A stretch of 41,323 nucleotides of DNA from Escherichia coli (GCF_003334255.1 NZ_QOWU01000052.1); one strand, 5' to 3'; shown: positions 37,304 through 38,242, counted from the first letter of the stretch. Notes: generated from the letters alone by a model not told the origin. Made by a program: numbers and translations.

Positions 37304-37324
37304 CCGGGAGGGTTCTCCCTCCCG
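37304..37324. other. GC-rich hairpin between the convergent gspO and bfr genes
   Basis: ccgggaggg-ttc-tccctcccg perfect stem-loop; no flanking U-run on either strand. Confidence 0.5.
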
Positions 37325-37331
37325 ACACGGC

Positions 37332-37808
37332 TCAACCTTCTTCGCGGATCTGTGCTTGCAGATAATTTTGCAGGCCCATCTTCTGAATCAGATCAAGTTC
37401 CGTTTCCAGCCAGTCGATATGGCCTTCTTCATCACGCAAAATTTCTATCATCATATCGCGGCTGACGTAATCATGAACGCTATCGGCATAACCAATTGCC
37501 TCACGCAAATTCTTCGCGCCATCCAGCTCAAGTGCCAGATCAGAACGCAGCATTTCCTCAACATCTTCACCAATGTTCAGTTTGCCCAGGTCCTGTAAGT
37601 TTGGAAGACCTTCCAGAAAAAGAATGCGCTCAATATAACGATCGGCGTGTTTCATCTCATCAATGGATTCATGATACTCCACATCATTGAGACGTTTGAG
37701 ACCCCAGTTTTTAAACATTCGGGCATGGAGAAAGTACTGATTGATTGCGACAAGCTCATTTCCCAACAGTTTGTTGAGATAATTTATAACTTTAGTATCA
37801 CCTTTCAT
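37332..37808 (-). CDS. bfr: Bacterioferritin (158 aa)
   Basis: Translation [67 protein letters not shown]... with ferroxidase-centre residues. Confidence 0.98.
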
Positions 37809-37879
37809 TTTTTGACTCCTTCGCTTCCACTCTTTGAAGAGTAGAACGGCTTACGAGTAAGTCAAAAAACACACTCCGT

Positions 37880-38074
37880 TTATGCGGACTCCTTAAACTC
37901 CGGCAGCTGCATTAATTCATCCTCCATCACTTCACGCGCGGCCCGGACACATTTACCGCACTGATTGCCGACCGGAATAAATTTTTTTAATTGCTGGAAC
38001 GAGTGAGGGGAAAACTGGCGCACAGCCTGACGAATTTTTTTATCGCTGATACCATTACAAAGACAAACGTACAT
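37880..38074 (-). CDS. bfd: Bacterioferritin-associated ferredoxin Bfd (64 aa), [2Fe-2S]
   Basis: Translation MYVCLCNGISDKKIRQAVRQF...GNQCGKCVRAAREVM with the C-x-C...C-x-x-C cluster ligands. Confidence 0.95.
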   Translation of the reverse strand: MYVCLCNGISDKKIRQAVRQFSPHSFQQLKKFIPVGNQCGKCVRAAREVMEDELMQLPEFKESA

Positions 38075-38176
38075 AGAGACTCCCGTATACTTTCTTCAAA
38101 AATAAATGAAAATAGTTCTTATTTCAATTACGGAAAGACTCTTTTTTAAGCAAAGAATAGAAATATGAATAAAAAT

Positions 38177-38235
38177 AATGGGCTACCAAAAGTAGCCCAT
38201 TGACAAAAAATGCGGCGATACTGGAAGGTATCGCC
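38177..38235 (-). terminator. Tandem rho-independent terminators downstream of chiA
   Basis: Hairpin ggcgatac-tggaag-gtatcgcc (38214-38235) followed on the minus strand by a U-run (38205-38210), then a second hairpin aatgggctac-caaaa-gtagcccatt (38177-38201) followed by T-rich sequence. Confidence 0.7.
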
Positions 38236-38242
38236 AACACAT

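Follow-up and report, generated by a model that had tools for sequence, protein, structure and literature searches.

The bfd-bfr iron-storage genes of Escherichia coli lie between gspO, the last gene of the T2SS operon, and the chitinase gene chiA, with hairpins on both sides. The question raised by this arrangement is whether the hairpins form a device that shields bfd-bfr from its neighbors or simply mark the places where transcription units end. A preliminary description of the locus took the former view and proposed that read-through from chiA into bfd-bfr is actively blocked, which would uncouple iron-storage expression from the secretion and chitinase genes. The window analyzed here is a 41,323-nt stretch of E. 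coli DNA (GCF_003334255.1, NZ_QOWU01000052.1), and positions refer to this window except where MG1655 is named (Table 1). Our overall explanation, which we hold with good confidence, is that this is a known K-12 junction with ordinary boundaries, promoters of its own and a 3' stem-loop. All the sequence features named in the preliminary description exist, and its interpretation holds in part: the flanking hairpins are real, but they are how chiA and bfr normally end, and no special insulating device.

A megablast search with positions 37000-38500 returns 100% matches to E. coli chromosomes whose annotation at this place reads gspO / bfr / bfd / chiA, and the gene order (gspO> <bfr <bfd <chiA <tufA) is that of E. 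coli K-12. MG1655 differs from window positions 35583-41323 at a single base in 5741 nt, and its coordinates convert as window = MG1655 minus 3428917. Its annotation (gspO 3465543-3466220 (+), bfr 3466249-3466725 (-), bfd 3466797-3466991 (-), chiA 3467160-3469853 (-), then tufA) follows the same order as the window, and the placement of bfd-bfr on the minus strand in the preliminary description, with gspO convergent and chiA upstream, agrees with both the ORFs and the annotation. Bfr scores 279.7 bits against TIGR00754 and Bfd 143 bits against NF007803, where the curated NCBIfam cut-offs are 125.6 and 75. An Rfam scan of 37100-38400 at E <= 1 matches zero families. The chiA / bfd-bfr / gspO junction is known and among the best-studied stretches of any genome, and the published K-12 bfd-bfr unit is the window locus, with no structural difference. 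Promoter hexamers, Fur repression of bfd, CsrA control of the leader, RyhB repression and the bfr 3' end are all published for it, and the finding is thus the boundaries of a textbook locus that were already known.

Table 1. Features of the gspO-bfr-bfd-chiA junction, in window coordinates
Feature	Position	Strand	Basis
gspO, prepilin peptidase, at the end of the cryptic T2SS operon gspC-O and transcribed toward bfr	36626-37303	+	ORF and RefSeq annotation
GC-rich stem-loop (stem of 8-9 bp, 4-nt loop) within the bfr 3' UTR of 30 nt	37304-37325	-	Folding and Term-seq
bfr, bacterioferritin	37332-37808	-	TIGR00754 and annotation
bfr leader GAGUGGAAGCGAAGGAGU, two GGA motifs and Shine-Dalgarno	37815-37832	-	Columns at least 90% conserved in the 81 distinct spacers listed
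Internal bfr promoter: -35 TTGACT (37865-37860), 16-nt spacer, -10 TACTCT (37843-37838), preceded by C	37838-37865	-	Conservation
bfd, bacterioferritin-associated ferredoxin	37880-38074	-	NF007803 and annotation
bfd promoter, -35 TTGAAA / 17 nt / -10 TATTTT	38099-38127	-	Consensus scan and RpoD genomic SELEX
Fur-box-like sequence in the bfd promoter spacer	38102-38126	-	Consensus count and cross-genus homology
T2, second chiA terminator, 10-11 bp stem, -15.4 kcal/mol	38177-38201	-	Terminator scan and folding
T1, first chiA terminator, 8-9 bp stem, -13.2 kcal/mol	38213-38236	-	Terminator scan and folding
chiA, endochitinase/lysozyme, same strand as bfd, upstream	38243-40936	-	ORF and annotation

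T1 and T2 are two stem-loops that together span 7-66 nt past the chiA stop codon (38243-38245), with T1 beginning 7 nt beyond it. T1 is followed by the tail CAUUUUUUG at 38212-38204 and T2 by AUUUUUAUUC at 38176-38167, and both tails are U-tracts. Each element has the make-up of an intrinsic terminator, with a GC-rich stem of at least 5 bp, a short loop, a U-tract and a co-directional stop codon upstream. The 86-nt segment that holds the pair folds at -35.9 kcal/mol, compared with -14.8 +/- 2.9 kcal/mol for dinucleotide shuffles (z = -7.4), and 0 of 200 shuffles fold as well. The tandem terminators that the preliminary description placed after chiA (38177-38235) are upheld as two canonical stem-loops with U-tracts. 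On the plus strand no T-run follows either stem, which makes T1 and T2 unidirectional. Terminator-like sites in the 17-kb block as a whole are at chance level (21 observed vs 19.2 +/- 4.6), and the best three of them are the tufA terminator, T1 and T2, each lying directly 3' of a stop codon on the coding strand. T1, T2 and the hairpin after bfr are unchanged in E. coli of the same arrangement (haplotype A, see below) that are about 1.5% diverged, except for an A/G difference in the T1 loop, and covariation therefore says nothing either way.

Judged from these sequence features, T1 and T2 would act as Rho-independent terminators that end chiA transcription in vivo. The two condition tabs of the MG1655 Term-seq data that cover the chiA-bfd region contain no (-) 3' end between 3466218 and 3470093 (PMC7815308), and the names chiA and bfd are absent from the whole of the supplementary files of that study. 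The lack of 3' ends between chiA and bfd is expected, since chiA is probably not transcribed under the Term-seq conditions; PMC3032704, citing Francetic 2000, describes the neighboring T2SS cluster as being under repression in K-12, which is the reason for taking chiA to be probably silent. T1 and T2 are not discussed in the papers on bfd-bfr that were available. Tandem intrinsic terminators are found at the ends of genes, an example being rrnB T1-T2. The chiA pair resembles such tandems and hairpin clusters in having two consecutive GC-rich stem-loops with U-tracts no more than 70 nt from a stop codon, and differs in that chiA gives no sign of being transcribed so strongly that a second terminator would be needed. 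Hairpin clusters are described in PMC8355165.

Related genomes show what normally stands in front of bfd. In those examined, the gene ahead of bfd, mostly tufA, is always followed by a hairpin, and the hairpin sequences are unrelated. A single strong hairpin is present at this place in Enterobacter sichuanensis, Kosakonia oryziphila and Trabulsiella, and two hairpins of another sequence are present in the uncultured Enterobacteriaceae bacterium UBA5654. In the sampled tufA-adjacent genomes, including Citrobacter, Silvania, Pluralibacter and Kluyvera, the tufA terminator AAAAGGGCGCTTCGGCGCCCTTTTT comes first and then the bfd promoter; five such loci were folded, and the alternative E. coli arrangement (haplotype B, see below) was read from sequence. 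The tufA gene is among the most highly expressed genes, and one terminator alone separates it from bfd. A tandem pair behind a probably silent chiA gives no reason to assume a function dedicated to insulation. The arrangement with the tufA terminator (haplotype B, Citrobacter, Kluyvera, Pluralibacter and most Enterobacterales, presumably also Salmonella) has the same order as K-12, namely upstream gene, terminator, promoter, bfd, bfr and hairpin, and also shares the Fur-box-like bfd spacer and the internal bfr promoter. It differs in the upstream gene, which is tufA with a single terminator where K-12 has chiA with two.

It is possible to read the tandem chiA terminators as a selected insulator that keeps chiA read-through out of bfd-bfr. 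There are two terminators rather than one, UBA5654, which is the nearest relative of the block among the matches listed, also has two hairpins although their sequence is different, and a terminator before the bfd promoter is kept in every lineage. We nevertheless consider this reading unlikely. A terminator after a stop codon needs no special explanation, Enterobacter, Kosakonia and Trabulsiella manage with single hairpins, and so does the bfd-tufA interval, although tufA is very highly expressed. There is also little to block, with the T2SS described as repressed in K-12 and no chiA 3' end in the Term-seq tabs for this region, and bfr has a promoter of its own. Any terminator at this place would keep chiA RNA from running into bfd-bfr, and insulation in this sense is trivially true of any unit boundary. 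Since the terminator before the bfd promoter and the hairpin after bfr are kept in position, they are ordinary transcription-unit boundaries, and the proposal of an actively blocked read-through is overstated, given that every related genome examined has a terminator hairpin of unrelated sequence before bfd.

The bfd promoter lies about 40 bp beyond T2 and is the sole consensus promoter match in the chiA-bfd spacer. Genomic SELEX with the RpoD holoenzyme assigned identical hexamers in the chiA/bfd spacer to bfd-bfr (PMC3946193), and the promoter region proposed at 38075-38176, beside the chiA terminators, is confirmed by this match (38127-38099). The -10 and -35 elements of bfd and bfr given here are assigned from consensus matches, conservation and SELEX rather than from mapped 5' ends, and the supplements of PMC10392735, PMC4782308 and PMC10301672 contain no transcription start data for either gene. 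A bfd promoter-lacZ fusion is repressed by Fur and derepressed in a fur mutant of K-12 (PMC4676285). The Fur-box-like sequence in the promoter spacer has 11 of 19 matches to the 19-mer consensus (GATAATGATAATCATTATC-like) in K-12, which is no better than many sites in the window, and 13 of 19 at the homologous place in the haplotype B allele. Consensus counting is uninformative for the K-12 allele, and because a score of 11/19 is unexceptional in the window, Fur control of bfd is taken from the literature and not from the scan. Other genera have a homologous spacer (K-12 GAAATAAGAACTATTTTCATT, Yokenella GAAATCAAAATCATTCTCATC, Providencia GAAATGGTAATCATTTTTATT), and the sequence looks like a degenerate Fur box, through which Fur-Fe2+ may repress this sigma-70 promoter.

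The bfr gene appears to be expressed mainly from a second, strongly conserved promoter in the bfd-bfr spacer. Spacers from the bfd stop to the bfr start were extracted from at least 80 related loci and comprise 81 distinct sequences from Enterobacterales. Among the matches listed, TTGAC[TA]-16-TAC[GTA]CT is present in 59 of the 81, and 58 of these 59 have a C directly before the -10. We take a C just upstream of a CTAYRCT-like -10 to be the form preferred by sigma-S. Also among the matches listed, a T-run upstream and the block GGAAGCGGAGG before the ATG are conserved (columns at least 90%), and the remainder of the spacer varies. In K-12 the -10 hexamer is separated from the ATG by 29 nt, from which a leader of about 22 nt is estimated. 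A bfr-specific transcription start is used, and CsrA binds the bfr 5' UTR (PMC6686035). Fur does not regulate a bfr'-'lacZ fusion that includes some 500 nt upstream of the gene (PMC6686035).

RyhB repression of bfr translation is published, and the RyhB site in the bfr mRNA is stated to be still unidentified (PMC6686035). The leader at 37815-37832 is a candidate for this pairing site. A duplex of the RyhB core region with the leader has an energy of -21.9 kcal/mol, which 1.3% of shuffles equal or beat; full-length RNAs gave unrealistically long duplexes and weak statistics, and the core-region test was used instead. The leader may thus combine GGA motifs bound by CsrA with a RyhB pairing site. 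A different kind of control, in which conserved structure masks the bfr ribosome-binding site, is rejected as a general mechanism: the K-12 spacer folds strongly (z = -4.1), but the consensus fold of 12 diverse spacers has only -0.24 kcal/mol and essentially no covariation. It survives as a lineage-specific lead.

The 71-nt bfd-bfr spacer contains no terminator-like site in the scan, and for this reason RNA polymerase that starts at the bfd promoter probably reads on through bfr. An attenuator or terminator between the two genes was also considered and rejected, given that there is no such site and that no 3' end appears here in the two Term-seq tabs for the region. The bfd-bfr operon of the preliminary description stands insofar as no terminator separates the genes, and requires amendment insofar as bfr has its own conserved promoter and a published start. 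As it does not depend on a single promoter, bfd-bfr is not a simple operon, and modeling it as one should be avoided because the two genes are regulated discoordinately: bfd serves iron release and is repressed by Fur, and bfr serves iron storage and has its own promoter with control by CsrA and RyhB. With a conserved promoter and start of its own, bfr would be expressed largely independently of chiA read-through. The uncoupling of bfd-bfr from chiA and gsp is therefore correct as a matter of separate expression, but it comes mostly from the promoters and regulators of the genes themselves (Fur, the internal bfr promoter, CsrA and RyhB) rather than from the terminators.

The GC-rich hairpin between bfr and gspO has arms at 37305-37312 and 37317-37324 (8 bp, 100% complementary) and takes up 21 bp of the 28-bp gap that separates the convergent gspO and bfr stops. 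Both strands fold, at -17.1 and -17.6 kcal/mol, and the hairpin is only weakly beyond chance in a 56-nt fold test (z about -2, with 7-10 of 200 shuffles equaling it). Neither 3' flank, UUAAUAAGAG for bfr and CACGGCUCAACC for gspO, is a U-tract. The bfr-strand tail as scored, UUAAUAAGAGA, likewise lacks a U-tract, and the terminator scan calls the hairpin on neither strand. It is a hairpin, yet it lies outside the definition of an intrinsic terminator. A hairpin follows shortly after the bfr stop in nearly all related loci examined, with differing sequences. The haplotype B terminator of bfr has a long stem and a U7 tract and lies within the last part of the reading frame of a prepilin-peptidase remnant of 155 aa, unlike the K-12 hairpin, which is U-less and lies in an intergenic gap.

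The same hairpin does define the 3' end of the bfr mRNA, and among the hairpins considered here it is the one that has in-vivo support. Term-seq of MG1655 reports a 'primary' bfr 3' end at 3466218(-), equal to window position 37301 (PMC7815308, supplementary file 1), which is 3 nt beyond the stem (...CCCUCCCGGUUA-3'). At least two condition tabs list this end, with 45,215 and 2,955,315 reads (PMC7815308), and by the order of the caption in that source they are probably LB OD 0.4 and LB OD 2.0. If the second tab is LB OD 2.0, the roughly 65-fold higher signal in it fits independent expression of bfr, since Fur is expected to repress the bfd promoter in this medium. Bicyclomycin data (supplementary file 2 of PMC7815308) place a Rho termination region with a Rho score of 3.1 at 3466021(-), which is window position 37104, antisense to gspO and about 200 nt downstream of the hairpin. 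A second Rho region, at 3465921 on the plus strand, falls within gspO (PMC7815308), and no gspO 3' end is reported in this Term-seq study. Part of bfr transcription runs past the hairpin and is stopped by Rho.

Stem-loops can mark the 3' ends of Rho-terminated transcripts after trimming by exonucleases. The bfr mRNA resembles such RNAs in having a stable, U-less stem at its 3' end and a bicyclomycin-sensitive region about 200 nt downstream. Trimming is a feature of these transcripts, and for bfr it is proposed, with direct termination at the stem also possible. All transcripts that contain bfr would end 3 nt past the stem-loop in the 28-bp gap. Because there is no U-tract and the bicyclomycin-sensitive region lies about 200 nt on, the stem is most likely a stop for 3' exonucleases after Rho-dependent termination within antisense gspO, and some transcripts may terminate at it directly.

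A bidirectional intrinsic terminator that serves both gspO and bfr is the other way to read the hairpin at 37304-37325. It occupies the space between the convergent gspO and bfr stops, is equally stable on either strand (-17.1 and -17.6 kcal/mol), has the bfr 3' end 3 nt after its stem, and has counterparts at the bfr end of relatives that carry gsp genes. However, the flanks UUAAUAAGAG and CACGGCUCAACC contain no U-tract, the scan makes no call, Rho regions are present on both strands, about 200 nt past the hairpin for bfr and within gspO for the plus strand, and no gspO 3' end is reported (PMC7815308), so that we regard this reading as improbable. The preliminary description was right about the stem at 37304-37324, which coincides with a mapped bfr 3' end, but a terminator common to gspO is unsupported, given the lack of a U-tract on either strand and the Rho region about 200 nt on. 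A reading in which the hairpins play no part in transcription, being inverted repeats that arose by chance or remain from a repetitive or mobile element, is largely refuted and very improbable: the chance-level count of terminator-like sites in the 17-kb block and the fold of the bfr hairpin (z about -2) would fit it, but the tandem pair has z = -7.4, T1 and T2 are the best sites after the tufA terminator, directly behind a stop codon on the coding strand, and stay the same across diverged haplotype-A strains, the hairpin after bfr coincides with a mapped 3' end, and 37100-38400 has no Rfam match.

The variable parts of the locus are the T2SS and chiA. The bfd-bfr pair is an ancient resident between the str (tufA) and S10 (rpsJ) operons (PMC8046335), and the picture of a pair wedged between the T2SS operon and chiA is in this respect misleading. 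Among the matches listed, a T2SS lies between bfr and rpsJ in Yokenella, Chimaeribacter, Enterobacter sichuanensis, Citrobacter amalonaticus, Trabulsiella, UBA5654 and Rahnella, and many other genera have a prepilin-peptidase remnant of about 150 aa alone. The Kosakonia contig shows only gspO and part of GspD before it breaks off. Genes like chiA are present between tufA and bfd in a subset of the loci among the matches listed.

A species-wide dimorphism is seen at this place in E. coli, where the 16.6-kb gsp-bfr-bfd-chiA block alternates with a block of 1.5 kb. Haplotype A, the K-12 arrangement at 95% identity or more, is found in 3158 of the 5395 E. coli genomes with a match, and haplotype B, which matches over bfr-bfd only and at 60-80% identity, in 2233 of the 5395. 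The order in one haplotype B genome is rpsJ, the 155-aa peptidase remnant, bfr, bfd and tufA. The flanks of A and B are 100% and 99.3% identical, up to window position 24537 and from 41176, and between them A has 16.6 kb and B 1.5 kb. The right breakpoint, 41176, coincides with the mapped 3' end of the tufA mRNA (3470093). Over bfr-bfd, including the bfd promoter, the aligned identity of A and B is 77.4% (77-80% across comparisons), and the proteins are 90% (Bfr) and 88% (Bfd) identical. Based on this comparison, the secretion genes, the chitinase and bfd-bfr behave as one inheritance unit.

The B allele is nearest to Citrobacter among the matches listed, with 86-87% nucleotide identity. For bfr and bfd of the A allele there is no relative above 82% nucleotide identity among the matches listed, and its identity to B (79.5%) is like that to other genera; a donor for haplotype A was sought, and none among the matches listed is closer than 82% in bfr and bfd. 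No other Escherichia species and no Salmonella are among the matches listed in the scan of the genome collection. The closest relative of the block among the matches listed is UBA5654 (GspD 84%, GspE 79% and ChiA 73% identity). Tentatively, and with somewhat less than even confidence, it can be suggested that the K-12 bfd-bfr was not vertically inherited, and that, together with its promoters, terminators and leader, it belongs to a single 16.6-kb block (gspBA, gspC-O, bfr, bfd and chiA) that entered or persisted as a unit and, through recombination in the flanking tufA terminator and S10 promoter regions, replaced a native segment of 1.5 kb (peptidase remnant, bfr and bfd). Import of the block or an ancient polymorphism may each account for the two forms. 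If the replacement took place, the secretion/chitinase island carries its own iron-storage module, diverged by 20%, and bfr and bfd would for this reason look 'accessory' in pan-genome association studies.

In one pan-genome study, bfr and bfd are among the variable genes, are co-associated with gsp and chiA, and have a reported fitness association (PMC11390585). They occur there in exactly the same proportions as gsp and chiA, and the authors read the result as gene presence or absence (PMC11390585). Identical proportions are predicted by the dimorphism if clustering splits the two alleles. Studies of this type would then see two deeply diverged alleles of a core pair, linked to the T2SS/chiA block, and the 'accessory' status of bfr and bfd would reflect a difference between alleles, not the presence or absence of the genes.

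The locus is dimorphic within E. coli. Haplotype A, the K-12 form, is found in 3158 E. coli genomes, and a further 2233 match at bfr-bfd only, with 60-80% identity. The structure of the short form, haplotype B, was read from one genome, strain 139. The flanks of the two forms are 99-100% identical, but their bfr-bfd genes are merely about 77-80% identical, and no A/B recombinants were seen among the genomes matched. The right breakpoint of the block, at window 41176, coincides with the 3' end of the tufA mRNA. The nearest relatives of the haplotype B allele among the matches listed are in Citrobacter (86-87% nt), and none of those listed for the haplotype A allele exceeds 82% nt.

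Positions and strands of features at the locus and in haplotype B
Feature	Position	Strand	Remark
K-12 block	window 24538-41175		16.6 kb: gspBA, gspC-O, bfr, bfd, chiA
Haplotype B block	L001 5324-6855		1.5 kb: 155-aa prepilin-peptidase remnant, bfr, bfd
Long-stem bfr terminator	L001 about 5900-5960		E. coli haplotype B
Rho region in gspO	window 37004	+	PMC7815308 supp. file 2
Rho region in gspO	window 37104	-	PMC7815308 supp. file 2
Conserved bfr leader GAGUGGAAGCGAAGGAGU	window 37815-37832	-	overlaps Shine-Dalgarno sequence
Repeat arm TTTTTTGACT	window 37860-37869	-	overlaps -35 of internal bfr promoter
Repeat arm AGTCAAAAAA	window 37808-37817	-	between Shine-Dalgarno sequence and ATG of bfr

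The bfr terminator of haplotype B and of many genera has a long stem followed by U6-7 (AAACCCGCTGCC...GGCAGCGGGTTTTTT), and is also present in loci L011, L012, L015-L017, L022, L024, L026-L028, L032, L043 and L045 of other genomes. It sits within the 3' coding end of a convergent ORF of about 150 aa, a prepilin-peptidase remnant, where the opposite strand carries the motif NPLPFGPFLAAAGF; in E. coli haplotype B the stop of the remnant overlaps that of bfr by 4 bp. This double use as coding sequence and terminator might help explain why the truncated peptidase ORF persists across genera.

The conserved bfr leader is complementary to CUCACAUUGCUUCCAGUA of RyhB (sequence from L084 223-317, minus strand), with a duplex energy of -21.9 kcal/mol; 1.3% of dinucleotide shuffles reached or bettered this value, as did 2.6% of random 47-mers. 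The Providencia leader, ACUGGAAGCAAUG, is a perfect 13-nt complement of RyhB. In 2019 the RyhB site within the bfr mRNA was described as unidentified, and bfr ranks top among RyhB-repressed genes by Ribo-seq. Leader conservation alone cannot single out RyhB, since the same GGA motifs are also CsrA sites.

The bfd-bfr spacer of K-12 also contains a perfect 10-nt inverted repeat. In the bicistronic bfd-bfr mRNA, but not in the internal-promoter transcript, its predicted pairing would cover the ribosome-binding site of bfr. An 11-nt version occurs in the uncultured Enterobacteriaceae UBA5654; the repeat is absent from the bfd-bfr spacers of the loci listed for haplotype B and other genera. The K-12 spacer folds with a z-score of -4.1, and the consensus fold of the spacers has an energy of -0.24 kcal/mol.

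Rho-dependent termination regions have been mapped inside gspO on both strands, at MG1655 positions 3465921(+) and 3466021(-) (PMC7815308 supp. file 2), suggesting that Rho polices sense and antisense transcription in the 3' half of this 'cryptic' gene.

The -10 of the bfd promoter (window 38099-38104) is TATTTT in K-12 vs TACTTT in three other haplotype-A sequences, and the loop of T1, the first of the tandem chiA terminators, is CUUCCA in K-12 vs CUUCCG in the others, whose stem is thereby one pair longer (both from alignment A1). In the natural E. coli isolate MEW (L087 2322-4203), an IS1B has replaced mid-gspD through gspO, bfr and bfd, so this strain retains chiA and has no bfd-bfr at this locus.

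In Yokenella regensburgei, which has a T2SS at the same site, tufA and bfd lie about 3.2 kb apart (L004 116-3303). This interval has no ChiA-like match and possibly holds a gene for a different secreted substrate.
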